Source of the DNA: Saccostrea echinata
Lineage: Eukaryota
Assembly (NCBI RefSeq): GCF_033153115.1
Contig: NW_026889781.1
Span: forward strand, 7,688,001 to 7,752,000
Direction of reading: 5' to 3'
Length of the DNA: 64,000 nt
Position numbers and translations under genes: made by a program. Positions 13,568 through 24,144 of the stretch are shown here, piece by piece (position 1 is the first letter of the stretch; each line of letters opens with the position of its first letter). The notes below the pieces were generated by a model that did not search any database, had not been told where the DNA came from, and worked only from the letters and a program-made list of their open reading frames with translations.

Positions 13568-14775
13568 CTTTTGGTAAACCGATCCGTTGTATTTTCATAG
13601 TATTTAAATTTAAGTTCGTGTGGTTACTATATAGATACAGTTTCAAAGTACAGTGTCATGAGCTCATAAATATGAAATGTGAATGCCAATATCAAAACCT
13701 TGCCACACAAAATCATCGCTGGTAGTTTTCATGATATTTTTTGTCAAACAGTGCACATGCTTATTAACATATATTTACCTCTTAAATGTCAAAAATGTGC
13801 TGTATATCAATAAATGACGTACTTTATAAAGTAGGTCAAAGGTCAAGTTAAAAGGTCAAGGGGTCGGTAACCATGGTATTTTACTGACTGAAATTTCGTT
13901 ATTTGGACAGTTTTCAATAGAACAATAAACACATTGAATTTTAACAAATCCATAGATGAAACAACTTCACTTATTACATAATATTAAGGCAATGAAAAAA
14001 ACTAACAAGTTGTTAACTAAACTATTATAATCAATGTAAAAAAAAACAATAAAGTTATTGATATACTGTAATTATTTCATTGTAGCTAAACTCATTTTAA
14101 ATGTTTAATTTAAAAAAAAATAATTATAAAAACAAAACAAAAGAAACAAACATCAACGAAAGCAACAAAGGTTTATTACATGAAATGAACGGTTTTAACT
14201 GTTATTCAATAACATGATGGTTCATGCGTTTATGTATTTTGGAAATAAATTTCATTGAATCTAACTCATCAAAGCAATAAATTTATGTTGCCTTTTTGTC
14301 TTTGAAATCGACTTTAAAAACCTCTCTACTTATTTTTTATGTCTTGTATTTCATTTTTCTTTTTGGGGATGGATGTGTGGTGGTGTTTGTTGAGATTGGT
14401 TTGTTTTATTATTCACTTTTAATTATTTTTTGGCATGGATAAACATCGTCTGCGAAATGCTTAACCACTAAAAGAAACGATAGACACGTAACTTGATAAT
14501 ACATGTTATCAAGAAAATGAGCAAATACACATTGGCAATTTATATGCTAATGGGTATGATAATTTTTTCTTAATCGATTTCAATATATCTATTACTTTTT
14601 TTCAGCGATAATAGATTCAGTAGATACGATGAGCTTATTTAAATCGAATGGTTGATTTTGGGATCACCTACGCACTAAATAAAATCTCATGACTATTATG
14701 CCAAACCATAATTTAATATACATATATACACAGAATAATCTCAACATTGTGAATACAGGATTTTGTGGTAATTTT

Positions 14776-15085
14776 GATTAATGATTTGAATGATTGTATG
14801 TTATTTAACCTCTCATTCGAGAATTTTTCACTCATACAGAGACGTCACCATATACCGGTGAAGGGCTTCAAATTAAGACTTATACTCGGCACTCGGGGCA
14901 ATGGAACAGGACGGGTTTTTATCGTGCCAACGCCTACTGTGGAACGGGACCTCGGTTTTTAAGATCTCATCCAAAACACCCTTGACCTACACTTCTAATG
15001 CCTGGCGCTTGGCGGGGAAACAGTCACTGTCTGTATCTACATCCTAGGTTTGACTCGGCGCGTTGAACTAGAACCCTAGCCTCCC
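14776..15085 (-). mobile_element. tRNA-derived SINE
   Basis: Reverse complement of the 13225 SINE body (GAATTTTTCACTCATACAGAGACGTCACCATATACCGGTGAAG...), (TGAT)n tail on the left. Confidence 0.75.
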
Positions 15086-15666: not shown

Positions 15667-17021
15667 ATGATGCTGGACCGAATATTAGTCCTTCTGTCGC
15701 TTTGTAACGCTTGCAATATAACAGAAATGACCGAAAGACCTGAGCTTCTTTCTGATATATCTGACATTATTCCTCTGAAAAAGATGTCCTCCATTCTCAG
15801 TAACGATTTGCAAGATAGGGAGAATAAAGTACGTATATTTCTTCCCAGAAGAAAAGTGCCGGCCAATTCCAATCAAAATTTCAACAACTTATTTTCAAAG
15901 CTTTAGCTTATTAAAGAAGATGATGATTTCATTTCACAAGTTAATAAATCTGTCAAAGGAACAATGAAAGTCTCAGCGTCAAGTGATGAATTCCATGATT
16001 CACAATATCAAATTGATGCTTTTCAAAACAGAAATTTTTGGCTTGAAATGGCGTGTTCGTCTGACGTTGATATCTGGCAAAGTGGAATTATCTTAGGAAA
16101 ACCTGAAGGGACAAATATTAGTAACACAACACAAGATATGGCATTTACAGGTGGGACACGTGATACAAACCTGTCATCTTCCATCAAAGGTGACTTTATT
16201 CAAGGGATTAGAAGAGTCAAAGATATACATTTTAATTTCATTACTATTTTGTCTCTAACTACGTTGTCTGTTGGTGTCATCAGCAACATATTAACTGTAG
16301 CAATTATTATATCGAAACAATCATTACGAAAACCATTTATTATGCCATATTAATACTATGTGCAACTGACGTCTTTTATTCGATTCACAACTTGATAGCC
16401 TTTTCATTGTTCTTCATTGAAAATCTCTGTCAATTTTTCAAGTATCTGAAAATGCAGTAGGATATGGAGTGATATTACTGTCAAAAATGTGCGTTCTTTT
16501 CCTGGGGTTTATTCGATATGCAATGTTTGTTTATCCTATCAGAAGCCGTTTGTACATAACTACAAACTTAATCATCATCTTAGCTATTGTGTCCGTCTTA
16601 CTAAGCACCGCGTACGGATATACCATTGTATATTTTTTATGGTCCTTGAACATGTCTCGCCAGTTTATCCTTTTCATTTGTGATGACATTTTTTATTCTA
16701 GTTGTTTCTCTAATTCTACATAGTGTACTATTTTTCAAAAGGTTGTGTACTGCAAAATCATCAATAGCCACTGGTAATTTGAAAATCAAAATGACCATAA
16801 TTGTAACAATTCTTTTAACGTTGAATTGTATGAGCTCCATTTTAAATATCACATACATGTACAATTTAAATGTTTACATGCTTCAGAAGTACTCCTTTAG
16901 ATTCCCAGAACTACTTTCTCTGACAGAAACACATTTGCTGTTTTTTGTTAGCAACTTTATGAAAATAACTGTTCATTCTGTTAACCTTTTTCTCTACTTT
17001 TTTCTACCTCTCCTCCGATGA
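15667..17021 (+). pseudogene. Disrupted intronless 7TM receptor (class A GPCR-like) with signal peptide and long N-terminus
   Basis: Signal-like MMLDRILVLLSLCNAC; in-frame TAG at 15904-06; TM1 LSVGVISNILTVAIII followed by LRKPF; DRY-like FIRYAMFVYP; NPxxY-like HSVNLFLYFF; frameshifts near 16340, 16440 and 16680. Confidence 0.65.
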
Positions 17022-17163
17022 AAAGATTAATGATATTCTGTTTTACATGCCAAAAAAAAGTTGACGATCCGGGGGGGATGGCTTAAGTTTACCTGATACT
17101 TTCCAGAAATTAACAGTTTGTGTGCTAGAAATTAAAATTTCCTCCACAAAAGTCTGAAAATAC

Positions 17164-17706
17164 TGTAATGGTTATTGGAAACTGAAAACGCAAAGAAGAC
17201 CCAGATGTAAGGTTAGAATGGAATAACCTGTCCTCCCTTAAGCTTAAAGTAGACTAGTCCAAAGGGTATAAATAAGACTGCATTGAGAGATTCAGAGTCT
17301 TGTGGGGAATGCAGAGCTGCAGTTAAGTAGAAGCAGGAGAAATATTTGGGTAAGAATAACGGATAAGAGAAAGGGAAAATAAAAGAAATAGATTTGCACC
17401 AGTGATAAGAATCTCGGGGAATTGAGGCGAGATACTGGGGGCTGTAGATCTGTATAAGAACGAAACTCCTAGTATCCGCTATCAATAGGAACCTGGGGCA
17501 AGGTACACGGTGCTAAGTCTAACAGTTACCAAGTCATAAGAATTCATCCCACATTATATATTCTTTGATTAAATATAATAGAAAAACCCAGATAGGTTTA
17601 AGAAAAATTATTATACTGTACATAGTCAAATTATTAGATCATAAACTCAGGTAGAGTAAGAGAAAAATTCATCCCCTGAGAACCCAACGCAGGGGTACAC
17701 GTTACA
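17164..17706 (+). repeat. 5' LTR
   Basis: Direct repeat of 24145-24687 with 3 transitions seen; TATAAATA at 17267-74. Confidence 0.97.
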
Positions 17707-17709
17707 TTT

Positions 17710-17724
17710 TGGTGGCAGCCGGTA
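17710..17724 (+). promoter_or_regulatory. Primer-binding site, probably tRNA-Leu
   Basis: TGGTGGCAGC(C)GGT 3 nt after the LTR; complementary to the 3' end ...ACCGCTGCCACCA of eukaryotic tRNA-Leu(AAG/TAG) type. Confidence 0.7.
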
Positions 17725-17744
17725 AGGGGATAGAAGTTAATAAG

Positions 17745-17965
17745 ACAAAATTACTAGGTACGAGGTCCAGTTTACCAAGTGCTATTTACGAGGTTCAGTG
17801 GTACCAGGTACGCAGAGCCAGGTACGGTGTTACCAAGGACATTTTACCAAGTACAGTTTACCAGGTCCAGTATAACCAGGTACAGAGAGCCAAGCGCGCT
17901 GTTAACAAGTACTGCTTACCAGGTCCAGTGTTACTAGGGCAGAGCGCCAAGTAGTGTGACAAGGT
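17745..17965 (+). repeat. Degenerate ~14-15-bp tandem repeat array in the retrotransposon 5' leader
   Basis: Recurrent CAGT(T/G)TTACCA(G/A)GT(A/C)-like units, e.g. TTTACCAAGT, TTACCAGGTCCAG, TAACCAGGTACAG. Confidence 0.65.
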
Positions 17966-18041: not shown

Positions 18042-18560
18042 ATGTCTGATAAAGAAGCGGATCTTTTGGCCGACCTAAGTGCTATACACGCCATGCGAGA
18101 GAAACTAAGGGAATCTCTAGACAGAATGAAGTCTACACCAAAGACATCTACAAATCCAGCAAGGATACCGGATTCGGGAGTAGATATTAGATACAGGCCA
18201 TTTGAATCTAGTTTAGATGAATTAACATCTAAATACACGAACACTTTGGACAGGGAAAAAGGTGCAACAGGTGGCAAAGAGGACTATAGGTACTTGATGT
18301 CCCCTAAGCCAAGTTATACGTTGTATGAGGAAGAAGAAAATGAAGGTAGAGGAACATTTACTTCTGGGGGACCAAACAAGTATGAAGTATCAGGACAAGT
18401 TAAGCAAACAACTCTCCCTAAATTGATTCCAACAACAGGATTGCCTTGGAATACTAGGGGATATGCTGCTCCGTCAACAACGACAAATGTGACTTGGTCA
18501 GACAGCCGAAATGCGGGTACTGGCTCATTTTCTGTTAAACAGCCAAAACCCAGTATATAG
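18042..18560 (+). CDS. gag: N-terminal part of Gag (in frame with the downstream Gag-Pol, separated by TAG)
   Basis: 172-aa ORF; the frame continues without a shift across TAG 18558-60 into 18591. Confidence 0.7.
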   Translation: MSDKEADLLADLSAIHAMREKLRESLDRMKSTPKTSTNPARIPDSGVDIRYRPFESSLDELTSKYTNTLDREKGATGGKEDYRYLMSPKPSYTLYEEEENEGRGTFTSGGPNKYEVSGQVKQTTLPKLIPTTGLPWNTRGYAAPSTTTNVTWSDSRNAGTGSFSVKQPKPSI

Positions 18561-18590
18561 AGTGCAACAAATAAAAGCACGGAATATACT

Positions 18591-21458
18591 GTGGGTAAAA
18601 CAGTGATGAAACCAGCGACATATGATGGAGTAGGATCTTGGATTGACTACAAGGCACACTTTGAGGCCTGTTGTGATATCAATATGTGGAGCGCTCGACA
18701 GAAAAGTTTGTACTTGGCAGCTTCGTTAAGAGGACAGGCTCAAACTGTGCTAGGAAATATGAGCCCAGGTACAGCCTGTACATATGAGGATTTATGCGAT
18801 GCCTTAGAGGCCAGGTTCGCACCGGCAAACCAAACTGAGTTATATAGAGCAATGCTGAAGGAGAAAAGACAGACACCCACAGAAACTTTGCCAGAGTTAG
18901 GTGAAAGTATTCGCCGATTAACTCACTTAGCCTACCCAACTGCTCCCCGTGAAGTAACAGAAATGATTGCCAAAGACCAGTTTGTCGATGCACTAACAGA
19001 CTTTGACATGAGACTCCGTATTCAACAATCTCGACCAAAGTCACTTAATGATGCGGTGCGACTAGCAGTCGAAATTGAAGCATATTGCAGAGCAGAAAGG
19101 CAACGAAGACATGACGTTGGGTTTGCCAGGAATGCCACAAGGGATCAAGAAAATAAAAATGTGAATCATGATGATGGCAGTGTAAGAGAAGAATTTAAGA
19201 AGCTTAGGGATGAGTTACACATATCTTTAAGAAAATTAGAAAACAAAATCGGAAACCTTTCAAAAGAGGAAATCAATAAACAATCCGAAAATACTGAACC
19301 ACAATCACCTGCTTTTCCGTACAAATGCCATCATTGTGGGAAACGTGGACATAAAATCAAAGATTGCTTTTTGAGAAACAAATCTAACCCAGTCCCGGTA
19401 CCAGTGCCAGGAAGCAGACCCAGGGCGAAGAACAATGCAAATGTGGAAAGGTCACCACAGGGGAAAAGAGATACAATCAAGTCTAGTACAGCTACGGTTA
19501 AACATGCGAAAACAGGTCTAGAATCAGGTCTTTTCATAAAAGCTCATGTAAACCTCGTACCTTGTAATCTACTGGTTGATACTGGGGCAACACTTACTAT
19601 TTTTGCTGAAAGAATGTATGATGAAATGGTAAAGTCAGTTAATATTCCCCTGGAAACGGTATCACAGAACATAGTAGCGGCTGATGGAACTCCATTAAAA
19701 GTAAAGGGACGAGGTAACTTTTTAATTAAGTTAGGAGACCACGAGTTTGACTGCCAAGCTGTCGTGGCAAACATTAAAGCAGATGGAATTCTAGGTTTGG
19801 ATTTCCTTCGATCAAGTCAATGTTTAGTGGATATAGCTCGTACTAAAATGTTTGCATCTGGCGTTGAACATGATCTGCATTTACAGGGGCAAATAAGTTG
19901 TTTTCGTGTTAGTCTGGAGGAAAATATAACAATTCCTCCTAGAAGTGAGATGATTTGTTCTGGACAGTTGTTATCATCTCCAGGAATAAAAGTACAAGGA
20001 CCTCTACTTATAGAGCCTATCAAAAAGTTTGATACCGGCGGTAAAGCGCTAATAGCTAGAACCTTGGTTGATCCAGCTAAAAATGTCACAGTGCGTTTAA
20101 TGAATATATCAGAACAGATTCAAACAATTTACAAAAATACAGTTGTCGGGGTGACTTCGCCAGTGGACGTAGTTAAATCTGAGGATGAAAATATTGTTAG
20201 CACAGTAACGCTAAGTGAAAAGATAGAAAACATACCAGATCATTTAAATGAGTTGTACACAGAAACAACTAAGGGCCTCACAGCAGAAAAGGCATCCAAA
20301 ATTAAAACATCTTTAATAAAGTTTCAGCACCTATTCTCTAAGGCCAAAGATGATTTTGGTAGAACCTCGTTAACAAAGCATAAGATCAATACAGAAGGTG
20401 CCAGACCAACCAAGCAGCCTCCTAGGAGATTGCCACATCATGCGGCAGAATTTGTTGACAAGGAAGTAGAAAATATGATCAGAAAAGGCATTGTCGAACC
20501 TTCTTCCAGTCCTTGGGCTGCCGGGGTGGTTCTGGTGGAAAAGAAAGATGGTACCAAGAGATTCTGTGTAGACTATAGATCTCTCAATAGTAAGACTGTG
20601 AAAGATGCCTATCCTTTGCCACGAATCGATGACTCGCTTGATCGTCTACAAGGAGCTATCTGGTTTTGCACCTTAGACCTTCATTCGGGGTATTGGCAAG
20701 TGGAGATGGATGAGGCTGATAAACCTAAGACAGCTTTTGTCACAAGAAATGGCCTATTTCAATTTTCAGTAATGCCCTTTGGACTTTGTAACAGTCCAGC
20801 AACTTTTGAGAGACTCATGGAGACGGTTCTTGCTGGGTTAAATTTTAAGATATGTTTAGTGTATATAGACGATATTATTGTCTTTGGAAGCACTTTTGAT
20901 GAGACACTTCAAAATCTGGAGCAAGTGTTCGAGAAATTACACCAGGCAGGGCTAAAGTTGAAACCTTCTAAATGTACCTTGTTTGAGAAAGAGGTTTTGT
21001 ATTTGGGATATCGTGTTTCAGGACATGGCGTTCATACCGACCCTCAGAAAAAAGACTGGTCTGTTCCCATAGATGCAAGCGAAGTGCGTTCGTTTGAGGG
21101 TCTTTGCAGTTATTACAGGAGATTTATTGCAGGTTTCTCCTCACTAGCTAAACCATTATTTAGGTTAACTGAGAAAGGCCGAGTTTTCAATTGGACATTG
21201 GAGTGTCAGGAGGCTTTCGAAAAGCTTAAGCACCATTTAGTCACTGCTCCCATTCTTGCACATCCTGACTTCTCATTGCCTTTTATTTTAGACACAGACG
21301 CAAGTCAAGTGGGTCTCGGTGTAGTCCTTTCTCAGGAAATAGATAGTGAAGTTAGAGTAATATCTTATGCAAGTAGGACTCTATCAAAAAGTGAGCGGAA
21401 ATACTGTATAACTAGAAAGGAGCTGTTGGCGGTAGTATTTGCCTGTAAACACTTTTGA
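18591..21458 (+). CDS. gag-pol: Gag core-CCHC knuckle-protease-reverse transcriptase-RNase H (premature TGA)
   Basis: KPATYDG..WIDYKAHF Gag core, CHHCGKRGHKIKDC, LLVDTGA, RFCVDYR, MPFGL, YIDD, LDTDAS; ends KHF*HYLYG where CGA>TGA is expected. Confidence 0.93.
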   Translation: MGKTVMKPATYDGVGSWIDYKAHFEACCDINMWSARQKSLYLAASLRGQAQTVLGNMSPGTACTYEDLCDALEARFAPANQTELYRAMLKEKRQTPTETLPELGESIRRLTHLAYPTAPREVTEMIAKDQFVDALTDFDMRLRIQQSRPKSLNDAVRLAVEIEAYCRAERQRRHDVGFARNATRDQENKNVNHDDGSVREEFKKLRDELHISLRKLENKIGNLSKEEINKQSENTEPQSPAFPYKCHHCGKRGHKIKDCFLRNKSNPVPVPVPGSRPRAKNNANVERSPQGKRDTIKSSTATVKHAKTGLESGLFIKAHVNLVPCNLLVDTGATLTIFAERMYDEMVKSVNIPLETVSQNIVAADGTPLKVKGRGNFLIKLGDHEFDCQAVVANIKADGILGLDFLRSSQCLVDIARTKMFASGVEHDLHLQGQISCFRVSLEENITIPPRSEMICSGQLLSSPGIKVQGPLLIEPIKKFDTGGKALIARTLVDPAKNVTVRLMNISEQIQTIYKNTVVGVTSPVDVVKSEDENIVSTVTLSEKIENIPDHLNELYTETTKGLTAEKASKIKTSLIKFQHLFSKAKDDFGRTSLTKHKINTEGARPTKQPPRRLPHHAAEFVDKEVENMIRKGIVEPSSSPWAAGVVLVEKKDGTKRFCVDYRSLNSKTVKDAYPLPRIDDSLDRLQGAIWFCTLDLHSGYWQVEMDEADKPKTAFVTRNGLFQFSVMPFGLCNSPATFERLMETVLAGLNFKICLVYIDDIIVFGSTFDETLQNLEQVFEKLHQAGLKLKPSKCTLFEKEVLYLGYRVSGHGVHTDPQKKDWSVPIDASEVRSFEGLCSYYRRFIAGFSSLAKPLFRLTEKGRVFNWTLECQEAFEKLKHHLVTAPILAHPDFSLPFILDTDASQVGLGVVLSQEIDSEVRVISYASRTLSKSERKYCITRKELLAVVFACKHF

Positions 21459-21464
21459 CATTAC

Positions 21465-23222
21465 TTGTATGGCCATAAGACAATTGTGTACACTGACCAT
21501 AGTGCTTTGAAATGGCTCATGAATTTTAAAGACCCCCAAGGACAGGTGGCCAGATGGATCGAATTTCTGGGTACTTATGATCTAGAAATACGACACAGAC
21601 CGGGTCCAAAGCATGGGAATGCAGACAGTCTCAGTCGATACCCCTGTCGTCAATGTGGATATAAGGGAAAAGATCAGGATGATGATCCTAAAACAGAAAC
21701 CGTACAGGCAGTTGAGAAAACATTGGCTGGAGACGGACTGACGATTGAAGAACTCCAAAAGCAAGATTCAGACATAGCAAAAATAAAGAGCTGGGTGTCA
21801 TCTCAGAAGCGGCCAGAGTTTGCAGAAATAAAGGCTGAAAGTAATGTTGTAAAGTCGCTATGGTCACAATGGAATACTTTAGAGATCAATAATGACGTAC
21901 TGCGTAGAAAATGGATAGGTGATAGAAAAGAGTTTCACCAAATTTTGGTCCCCTTGTCTGAAAGAAAGGAGATTTTAAGACAGTGTCATGATGCTCGAAC
22001 TGCGGGTCATCTTGGGGTAACAAAGACCTTGGCCAAAATACGAGAAAAAATCTATTGGGTTGGATTGCAGAATGATGTCCGTAGCTATGTGACTGGGTGT
22101 CCACAATGCAGAAAACGAAAATCTCGTTCTGCTGGAAAATCATACATGCAGTTAGATCAAATTGGGTTTCCCTTAGAACGAGTAGCCACAGATATTATGG
22201 GGCCACTACCCGAAACAGAGAAAGGTCACAAGTATATTCTAGTCATATCTGACTACTTTACTAAGTGGACAGAGGCCTTTCCTCTGAAAAACATAGAAGC
22301 ACGGACAGTTGCTGAAGTCATAGTAGAACAGTTTGTTACCAAGCTTGGTATCCCAGAAATAATACACAGTGACCAGGGCAGACAGTACGAAAGCAAGCTG
22401 TTCAAAGACATGTGTGAAATGTTGGGAATAAGAAAAACTCGAACTACTGCTTTCCATCCAAAGTCAGATGGAATGGTGGAAAGATTTAATAAAACTTTAG
22501 CAACAATGCTGAGTGCCTATGTGTCTGACCACCAACAAGATTGGGATAGAAACCTTCCGTATGTGCTTATGGCCTACCGTTCCTCTGTGCATGAAAGCAC
22601 AGGCTATACTCCGAATATGCTTATGTTTGGACGCGAGGTAGCTACCCCGCTAGATATCATGTATGAATTACCGAATAGTATGAAGCCAAGCAAAGTACAT
22701 GATTATGTATGGAAACTTCGGGAAACACTGGAAGAGGCATATAAGTATACCCGTCAGATTAGCCAGCAGTCTATGCTTAGACAGAAGAAGTATCACGATC
22801 AAAATATTATCAGTAAGAGTTTTGAGGTTGATGATAAAGTGCTAGTGTTTTTCCCACAAAGAAATGTAGGGAAGTCTCCCAAATTGATGAGTTTTTGGTA
22901 TGGCCCTTATATTATCGTTGAAAAGCACACTGATGTTACATTCAAAATTAGAAAAGAAAACGATACCAAGACTCTCATTGTACATATTGACAGGTTAAGA
23001 CATTATGGGACTCAGGTCCTGGGTAATGAAATACCGCAGTCTGAAGATGATCACCAAGTAGTGCAAGATGAAAGTCAGACTGATGAACTTCAGAATGATG
23101 AACCTGAACTAGATATGCTTGGTAATTCAGAACTGAATGAATTAGAATTGTCAAACGCCAATCGTAGACAACGCACTAGGCCTAAATGGCACACTGATTA
23201 TGAGTTTGATTATACAATTTAA
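21465..23222 (+). CDS. pol: RNase H C-terminus and integrase (same frame as Gag-Pol)
   Basis: TDHSAL, NADSLSR, HHCC (CHDARTAGHLG..CPQC), DDE (DIMGP, HSDQG, GMVERFN), GPY/F module WYGPY. Confidence 0.93.
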   Translation: MYGHKTIVYTDHSALKWLMNFKDPQGQVARWIEFLGTYDLEIRHRPGPKHGNADSLSRYPCRQCGYKGKDQDDDPKTETVQAVEKTLAGDGLTIEELQKQDSDIAKIKSWVSSQKRPEFAEIKAESNVVKSLWSQWNTLEINNDVLRRKWIGDRKEFHQILVPLSERKEILRQCHDARTAGHLGVTKTLAKIREKIYWVGLQNDVRSYVTGCPQCRKRKSRSAGKSYMQLDQIGFPLERVATDIMGPLPETEKGHKYILVISDYFTKWTEAFPLKNIEARTVAEVIVEQFVTKLGIPEIIHSDQGRQYESKLFKDMCEMLGIRKTRTTAFHPKSDGMVERFNKTLATMLSAYVSDHQQDWDRNLPYVLMAYRSSVHESTGYTPNMLMFGREVATPLDIMYELPNSMKPSKVHDYVWKLRETLEEAYKYTRQISQQSMLRQKKYHDQNIISKSFEVDDKVLVFFPQRNVGKSPKLMSFWYGPYIIVEKHTDVTFKIRKENDTKTLIVHIDRLRHYGTQVLGNEIPQSEDDHQVVQDESQTDELQNDEPELDMLGNSELNELELSNANRRQRTRPKWHTDYEFDYTI

Positions 23223-23291
23223 CTTTCAGTACAGTGTTTTAAGAATTATCATTCATTTTCAGATTTAAAAAAAAGGGAAGAAAGAAAAGAG

Positions 23292-23970
23292 ATGCCATTG
23301 ACCAAAGTGACTCCCAGGAAGCCTGGGTTTCTATGCTCTATTTGCTTGCTTCGCCTTCCTTCTGAAGAGGAATGGAGAGATCACTTGCTAGCATGTGGAA
23401 TGGCTGATAATAATTGACGAAAATATGAATGCGAATTATGTGATCAAGCTTTTAGTAAGAAAATTATCTTAACCAGGCATGTGAAACGCGTGCATAAGGA
23501 ACAAGAGATTTCAGAATTACAAGGAAAGAGGCAGATTCAAGATTCGTCAGTGGAATCACTTATAGAAGAGGATTGGCTAGAAGATCCAGGAGAACTAATT
23601 TTTGAAGAAGCCGATATTGAGTTAGGTAGAACTCAGAGAAAAAGAACTGCCCCACGTTTGCCAGGTATAAAAAGAAAAACAGCAGACAGAGTGAACCAAG
23701 TAGTTGAGGAAGAAATAATAAAAGACAAGGATGCGAAGAATGAAGGCGAAGCAACTAGGAGTAGACCAGACCAGGAGGCACCTGTGGAGAATCTGCATTG
23801 TTCCTGTTGCAAGAAACAAGTTGAGACAGTGGAAGTAGCTAAAACAGGCCAACATTCATGTTGAAGAAGTTAACCAGAGAAGACATAAGAAGATCATACG
23901 AGTGATCAGAAAATATCAAGAAAATGGAGAAACCATTGAAAAATTTGAAGAGGACATTTGGTCTGATTAG
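23292..23970 (+). pseudogene. Third ORF of the Gypsy element: double zinc-finger (C2HC + C2H2) protein, ~225 aa reconstructed
   Basis: MPLTKVTPRKPGFLCSICLLRLPSEEEWRDHLLAC...NN*RKYECELCDQAFSKKIILTRHVKRVH...; TGA at 23415-17; one extra A near 23842 shifts the end to ...EKFEEDIWSD* (23970). Confidence 0.8.
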
Positions 23971-24130
23971 ACTTCCTCATGTACGTCAAATCAAACTGAC
24001 TGTGTGTTTGTGTTTCTTTCATTTTTGTAACCAGGTGTTATTTTTACCTTTGATAAATAAATAAATTAAAAAAAAATAATAATAAAACATATAAATATCT
24101 AAAAAGAAAACATGCGGGACGCATGAAATC

Positions 24131-24144
24131 AGAGGGGTGGGTGA
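24131..24144 (+). promoter_or_regulatory. Polypurine tract
   Basis: AGAGGGGTGGGTGA directly abutting the 3' LTR. Confidence 0.8.

Follow-up and report, generated by a model that had tools for sequence, protein, structure and literature searches.

A zinc-finger third open reading frame with a histone H3-like N-terminus in the env position of oyster Gypsy retrotransposons

Results

Structure of the carrier element

The analysed window is a 64,000-nucleotide stretch of the Saccostrea echinata genome (RefSeq assembly GCF_033153115.1, contig NW_026889781.1, positions 7,688,001 to 7,752,000, forward strand), and it carries a full-length young Ty3/Gypsy LTR retrotransposon, all features of which lie on the plus strand. 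The 5′ LTR (17164..17706, 543 nt, TG...CA ends) shows 3 differences from the 3′ LTR (24145..24687), and the element is bordered by a 4-bp target duplication, ATAC (17160-17163 and 24688-24691). Gag, a zinc knuckle, protease, reverse transcriptase (RT), RNase H and integrase are encoded in a single gag-pol frame (18042..23222), in which the order protease-RT-RNase H-integrase is that of Ty3/Gypsy elements. The frame is interrupted in the window by in-frame stops at 18558-18560 and 21456-21458; in a sister copy, gag-pol is one uninterrupted frame of 1749 codons.

A putative primer-binding site (PBS; 17710..17731), which we take to be tRNA-Leu-like, is followed by imperfect repeats in the leader (17746..17947). 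Matching of the PBS to tRNA yielded 173 pattern matches, with tRNA genes at 0/16 of the loci tested. Copies of the same family vary here, with extra bases in the window form and a shorter form in L052 and L066. At the 3′ end, a conserved 6-bp hairpin (24111..24125) lies directly 5′ of the polypurine tract (PPT; 24131..24144). Of 12 families whose sequence was folded, 11 have the hairpin, and in L101 it bears a double change.

Several other sequences were observed in the window. Overlapping hydrophobic frames at 15907-17021 (+), which look like a 7TM receptor by eye, end 140 nt 5′ of the LTR; two of their three pieces were scanned against Pfam, and neither gave a match. Long frames at 29495-30487 (+) and 31533-32063 (-) resemble fragments of non-LTR or Penelope-type RT by eye, and MITE-like inverted-repeat pairs spaced 1.1-1.5 kb apart occur at 13387-14959 and 24762-25987.

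Architecture of the ORF3 protein

A sequence-only reading of this DNA had proposed a third ORF between the integrase stop (23222) and the PPT, and the present analysis confirmed it. This ORF3 (23292..23970, about 225 codons) starts with an ATG 69 nt past the integrase stop and ends with TAG at 23968-23970. The same reading had restored about 225 aa by allowing for one stop and one frameshift; both lesions could be placed, at 23415-23417 and at about 23840-23845, respectively. Among its four nearest sisters, which are 95-97% identical in DNA, two are unbroken and encode 225 aa (P0001) and 224 aa (P0002), so that the ORF is present and intact among sister copies. P0001 and P0002 are NCBI-named S. 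echinata proteins, and these natural unbroken copies served as the ORF3 reference throughout.

The motifs listed in that reading (C2HC finger, C2H2 finger, acidic patch, basic patch and CSCC) were all located within the ORF. The protein opens with a histone-H3-tail-like N-terminus (23292..23324), in which T3, K4, T6, R8 and K9 fall in register after Met removal. Zinc finger 1, of the C2HC type C-x2-C-x12-H-x3-C (23334..23396), and zinc finger 2, a classical C2H2 finger (23424..23495), follow; in an unbroken sister protein, finger 2 matched Pfam zf-C2H2 at E 0.0005, short of the curated cut-off. Further along are a near-invariant acidic W..DPG motif (23568..23591), a basic NLS-like patch with a near-invariant R-K-x-T-x-P (23637..23678), an HCxCC motif (23796..23810; HCSCC in the window) that is kept only in the window's sub-clade, an LC8/DYNLL1-type motif region (23820..23862) that is split by the frameshift in the window copy, and a C-terminal beta-hairpin (23884..23967, pLDDT >90) of no known family. 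The H3-like start and the LC8-type motif were both overlooked in the first reading, the latter probably because the frameshift falls inside it. In an alignment of 24 proteins with 26-58% identity to P0001, the residues M1, T7, C15, C18, C35, C50, H63, H68, K117 and Q185 are invariant.

In the fold model (mean pLDDT 67.8, pTM 0.32), confidence is high for the two fingers at residues 11-70 and for the C-terminal beta-hairpin at residues 199-224, and low for the part between them. Fold searches retrieved generic zinc fingers only, none at E<=0.001 (best Z 5.3), and barely tested the C-terminal hairpin. The first match of an atlas search was a 236-aa cluster without a name (0.95, with 149 features in common), which may be the ORF3 protein's own; no usable atlas match was obtained for residues 85-225. 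A reading of finger 1 as a ubiquitin-binding (NEMO/UBZ-like) finger was not adopted, as the fold search gave weak rows only (NDP52 finger, Z 3.6). An Env or env-like identity was rejected, in agreement with the earlier reading: hydropathy gave no signal peptide or membrane segment in 24/24 family proteins, where the best 19-residue Kyte-Doolittle mean was only 0.18-1.19, and no Env family occurs among the 25 most-matched Pfam families listed for ORF3.

Genomic position and distribution of ORF3

A search of the S. echinata genome gave at least 93 ORF3 matches at E<=1e-5, with 150 of 272 candidates scored; overall coverage, from three single-protein searches, is a lower bound. The positional analysis comprised 71 loci, namely 70 distinct fetched loci (a duplicate pair counted once) and the window. 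Integrase lies no more than 1.3 kb upstream of ORF3 in 51/71 loci, and gag, protease or RT lies upstream with integrase deleted in another 17, so that ORF3 follows Gypsy pol or gag sequence in 68/71. Of the three loci with no pol match, one is a deletion copy between LTRs, another bears a deletion junction and the third is a fragment. An LTR pair flanks ORF3 within a 9.9-kb stretch at 45/71 loci. Both metagenome-scan loci with ORF3 also have it 3′ of integrase (2/2). At L197:1194-2000, ORF3 is in frame with integrase, and the acceptor-like site and ATG are retained.

In the reverse direction, 40 unexamined loci were chosen from 150 integrase matches, spread across identity. ORF3 was found in 17 of the 26 closer loci and in none of the remaining nine; the 14 distant loci comprised 11 with other zinc-finger ORFs, 1 with a divergent ORF3 and 2 with none detected. 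In the integrase tree (52 rows; L062 and L089 left out for short matches; midpoint root for drawing only), the window and every ORF3-bearing row except L152 fall in one clade (99/99, 38 rows). Rows without ORF3 are nested inside this clade, as expected of losses. Such copies and families (L124, L127, L131, L142 and L143) have the hairpin and PPT shortly past the integrase stop.

Named homologs were found in the oysters Saccostrea cucullata, Ostrea edulis, Magallana gigas, Crassostrea angulata and C. virginica and, as protein records only, in the scallops Pecten maximus and Argopecten irradians. Several of them are near-identical copies at separate loci.

Selection on ORF3

Among 9 between-family pairs of unbroken copies, ORF3 pS was 0.76-0.88, which is saturated, and pN was 0.27-0.48; no dN/dS ratio is given between families because dS is saturated. 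In the same pairs, pN was 0.14-0.35 for gag and 0.05-0.23 for RT. The ORF3 pN exceeds the gag pN in shared pairs, which indicates that ORF3 is conserved yet evolves faster than gag. Within families, 9 pairs gave dN/dS of 0.20-1.93, and the interval excludes 1 in only 1/9. The within-family pairs are weak evidence. By these codon comparisons, ORF3 is under purifying selection between families, where synonymous sites are saturated and non-synonymous sites are not; the dN/dS near 1 that the earlier reading had named as a refuting sign did not emerge from that comparison. This selection and the number of genomic matches make ORF3 more than a chance frame.

These data bear on the explanation that ORF3 is a captured host zinc-finger fragment that is neutrally carried. 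RefSeq does list ORF3 proteins as host genes, one of them named 'zinc finger protein 407-like', as this explanation would have it. However, 68/71 loci stand behind Gypsy coding sequence, open frames persist despite the saturated synonymous sites, and the host proteins among the best 150 matches align at the fingers only. We therefore regard neutral carriage as highly improbable. Capture of a host C2H2 gene was likewise rejected as the identity of ORF3, with no full-length match to a non-transposon host gene and matches in the finger region only.

Expression of ORF3

A pyrimidine-rich, splice-acceptor-like tract ending in CAG (23248..23262) lies 29 nt 5′ of the ORF3 ATG in the window. When the 45 nt before the ATG were scanned, a pyrimidine-rich YAG was found 0-29 nt 5′ of the ATG in 12/14 families, and 0-28 of 109 background windows matched the acceptor score. 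A donor scan of 10 elements gave no shared site, and the acceptor joint was not found in two RNA runs (0.04 of words), with contigs from relatives at 80% likeness, which speaks neither for nor against expression. From the acceptor-like tract, we infer that the ORF3 message would be a subgenomic RNA produced by splicing.

An element with a 3′ acceptor meets the export problem that is known from Cer1 of Caenorhabditis elegans, whose CERV is described as a nuclear, spliced, cysteine-loop protein with an export role (PMC10309623). ORF3 could thus be a CERV/Rev-like factor that recognises the unspliced genomic RNA and enables its exit from the nucleus, a reading with which the conserved hairpin 5′ of the PPT agrees. 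This hairpin, however, is retained in ORF3-less copies; matches to a leucine-rich NES regex fall mostly within finger 1, with none conserved elsewhere; the CERV domain plan differs; and the H3 register would be left unexplained. On balance, an export factor of this kind seems quite unlikely.

N-terminus resembling the histone H3 tail

The likeness to H3 was first spotted by eye and was tested afterwards against the H3 read from the animal's own genome. Among 33 distinct ORF3 N-termini drawn from 42 proteins (L134 and L145 were left out, as no start was found), the H3-register residues are kept as T3 in 31, K4 in 32, T6 in 33, R8 in 29 and K9 in 28; family members are related, so these counts are not independent. 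The codons for these residues differ from family to family. Residue 1 after Met is P, V, A, T or I, and Met removal, leaving a free N-terminus, is probable because of these residues. Scored with the ORF3 family profile, H3 residues 1-10 reach 11.1, more than any other stretch of H3; this value was attained by 0/105,833 control 10-mers (best 9.2) and 0/129 control N-termini.

The 33-member set was partly chosen with patterns favouring T-K, and the analysis was therefore repeated on 20 distinct N-termini from whole-protein database searches, in which 31/33 proteins have the N-terminal finger. T3, K4, T6, R8 and K9 were kept in 18, 19, 20, 20 and 19 of the 20, respectively, and the H3 score was reached by 0/59,680 window-frame and 0/8,194 gag-pol 10-mers (best 10.9). 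As judged from these profile scores, the correspondence in register between the ORF3 N-terminus and H3 exceeds chance.

Several H3 readers need R2, and R2 of H3 is kept in only 1/33 ORF3 N-termini, which limits the readers that could bind ORF3. T-P-R-K stands at the H3-like residues in 18/33 N-termini, and this motif also fits a CDK site. In the divergent element L152 (1338-1808, -), which lies outside the main clade, the ORF3 start is identical to H3 at 7/10 residues, R2 included. This N-terminus may hint that the tail was derived from an H3 gene. Short histone-like motifs are described as common in viral proteins (PMC11738798).

Predicted LC8-binding site

A TQT-type motif centred on Q185 lies 33-44 residues from the C-terminus, and some families have two or three such sites. 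[TVI]QT occurs in 23/24 ORF3 proteins, which are related to each other, compared with 3.0 on average and at most 10 in shuffles (n=2000); the lone non-TQT case of the 24 is the window's own family, which has TQA. A TQT within a disordered region is described as an LC8 anchor (PMC6607443), and the motif region of ORF3 is modelled with low confidence, as a disordered stretch would be.

A complex of LC8 from the S. echinata genome with two copies of P0001 165-225 was modelled without use of our own alignment. The predicted complex scored 0.73 vs 0.53 for the best of 3 controls, which is exactly the minimum margin required (+0.20). In calibration, the score mark was reached by 51/78 solved complexes and 2/108 mismatched pairs, and in eukaryotes by 39/65 and 2/126, respectively; peptides fall outside this calibration. 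At least 80% of the contacts coincide between runs, the partner pLDDT is 56-58, and the modelled interface places ORF3 177-190 against LC8 59-70. LC8 is thus predicted to hold two ORF3 chains through residues 177-190. LC8-peptide complexes have already been solved, so the score may stem from those known structures, and the model shows likeness to LC8 complexes, not binding.

LC8 is described as chiefly a dimerisation hub rather than a cargo link, and the nuclear TQT proteins that it dimerises include Panoramix, a piRNA silencing factor of Drosophila (PMC7919418), and the zinc-finger factor ASCIZ (PMC5963919). The ASCIZ plan, a finger combined with a disordered TQT region, would also suit a plain LTR transactivator: LTR binding would fall to the fingers and activation to the acidic W..DPG motif, LC8 would tune the output as it does for ASCIZ, and the N-terminus would be no more than an NLS or a kinase site. 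In keeping with this proposal, finger 2 is similar to C2H2 fingers that bind DNA, and R62 is near invariant. By contrast, T3, T6 and their fixed spacing from the initiator Met persist where P7 is lost, and a comparison of 12 LTRs for common words, as candidate finger targets, yielded only TATA-like and terminal words. We consider a simple transactivator fairly unlikely.

Fused copies and other ORFs in the same position

In non-autonomous lineages of at least three families, gag-protease is joined to ORF3 near codons 33-43 (G000: L059-L061, L066, L067, L071, L077, L081, L083, L084, L098 and L112; also P0224). RT, RNase H and integrase are gone from these fusions, along with the H3-like tail and finger 1. 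L067 and L071 each hold a single open frame, of 906 and 861 codons, between LTRs that are 99.0-99.8% alike. An origin of the junctions as spliced products was ruled out, as they have microhomology or inserted letters instead of GT-AG.

The recurrence of Gag-protease-ORF3 fusions in these families and in P0224, together with the in-frame ORF3 of L197, would fit a particle or integration factor, that is, an ORF3 that accompanies the capsid or pre-integration complex, is transported by LC8/dynein and tethers integration to chromatin through the tail or fingers. Against this, most elements have ORF3 as a frame apart that begins with an ATG of its own, relatives lacking ORF3 have inserted too, and LC8, as noted above, acts mostly as a hub. 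A role in particles or integration is accordingly unlikely in our estimate.

Other zinc-finger ORFs occupy the same slot in elements whose integrase is 38-45% identical (L146-L148, L150, L151, L153-L157 and L159). Fingers occur with TQT and a likely coiled coil in L146, L147, L154 and L157, with a BTB domain in L150 (Pfam BTB_2, E 2e-18) and with acidic sequence in L148 and L153; the rest are of other kinds. LTRs flank all ten distant elements that were checked (L152 and nine of those listed), and each has matches to RT, RNase H and integrase as well as a 3′ ORF. For one type of distant slot ORF, 7 homologs were found, with named records in M. gigas and O. edulis.

Discussion

Possible function of ORF3

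The earlier reading had proposed an element-encoded accessory protein (an LTR transactivator, anti-silencing or targeting factor); the analysis supports this proposal, for which the H3-like N-terminus and the LC8 site supply two further arguments from sequence. ORF3, an accessory gene under selection in an oyster Gypsy clade, may act as a nuclear counter-silencing factor for the element; this is the reading that we prefer, at a probability a little short of even. The message would be a subgenomic RNA spliced at the acceptor that precedes the ORF3 ATG, and Met removal would give the protein a free N-terminus. The basic patch would then mediate nuclear entry, LC8 would pair two ORF3 chains via the TQT-type site, and the zinc fingers would place the dimer on the element's DNA or RNA. 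There, the two H3-like tails could decoy or recruit H3K4/H3K9 readers and writers, whereby the LTR would be kept active. Such a protein would act in trans, so that ORF3-less copies and families can persist. The recurrent fusions without the tail are left unexplained by the counter-silencing reading; young Gag-protease-ORF3 frames that lack both tail and finger 1 suggest that the C-terminal half may be useful by itself.

More broadly, the env slot of bivalve Gypsy elements might hold an H3(1-9) mimic mounted on zinc fingers and made bivalent via LC8, the hub on which piRNA silencing also relies for dimerisation, with sister designs that combine fingers and oligomerisation (TQT with a coiled coil, or BTB), together forming a class of animal retrotransposon regulators annotated as host genes. 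This generalisation is tentative, and we think it possible rather than probable.

Animal LTR retrotransposons are known to carry only a few accessory genes other than env, most of them lacking a mechanism, and ORF3 is clade-wide, selected and present in young copies. Two short motifs in it are also open to peptide assays. Should the H3-like tail act as a decoy, ORF3 would be a transposon-encoded histone mimic, through which the means by which animal retrotransposons counter H3K9-based silencing could be tested directly. The host zinc-finger labels that RefSeq gives to ORF3 proteins in oysters and scallops mislead gene-family and expression studies.

Comparison with known systems

The sequence-only reading had taken ORF3 as a candidate for an undescribed system. 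This holds in part: the protein family is apparently undescribed, and the slot is not new, since CERV and the ORF3s of bdelloid rotifers are already non-env third ORFs. No description of ORF3 was found in the literature covered, which lay outside Repbase, most subscription journals and supplements (e.g. those of PMC6238403 and PMC13524379). In the portions of text available, a mollusc Gypsy survey contains 'orf' and 'zinc' 0 times (PMC6238403), an env survey 'zinc' 0 times (PMC13524379), the bdelloid ORF3 paper 'zinc' and 'finger' 0 times (PMC5408684) and a survey of viral histone mimics 'retrovir' 0 times (PMC11738798); the portion of PMC4176367 held nothing relevant to ORF3.

Compared by description, CERV is, like ORF3, a non-env accessory protein of a Gypsy-type element, and it is nuclear with an NLS; its spliced RNA, a last part 3′ of pol, a cysteine motif and a predicted multimer (PMC10309623) would each have a counterpart in ORF3 as read here. 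Unlike ORF3, CERV has 517 aa, exons shared with gag and H/M/G domains; the available part of the account reports no C2H2 finger, H3-like tail or TQT site, and CERV homologs are described as confined to nematodes (PMC10309623). The ORF3s of bdelloid rotifers (PMC5408684) and the additional ORFs of plant elements (PMC7264820) resemble the oyster ORF3 in being family-specific, in lying between pol and the 3′ LTR and in having been gained or lost along the tree, but they are described as encoding env-like, GDSL, DEDDy, coiled-coil or TM proteins, unlike the zinc-finger ORF3. Insect sORFs are further known non-env third ORFs (PMC11952523). The Env of errantiviruses shares with ORF3 the slot and an acceptor-like site before the ATG, whereas ORF3 has zinc fingers in place of the signal peptide and membrane segment (PMC13524379).

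Two host proteins have a comparable plan. ASCIZ/ATMIN combines N-terminal zinc fingers with a disordered TQT region, as ORF3 does (PMC5963919), and Panoramix, which acts in transposon silencing, has C-terminal TQT sites beside a small folded unit, also as in ORF3 (PMC7919418). Both are host genes to which no full-length match was seen, whereas ORF3 is transposon-encoded and has 1-3 sites.

As for the tail, SNAG domains carry a short motif in register with that of H3. A short H3-register motif like that of ORF3 is also described in influenza NS1 (H3K4-like) and in SARS-CoV-2 ORF8 (PMC11738798). The ORF3 motif differs from those of the viral histone mimics in that it spans both K4 and K9, stands at a probably free N-terminus and is encoded by a retrotransposon.
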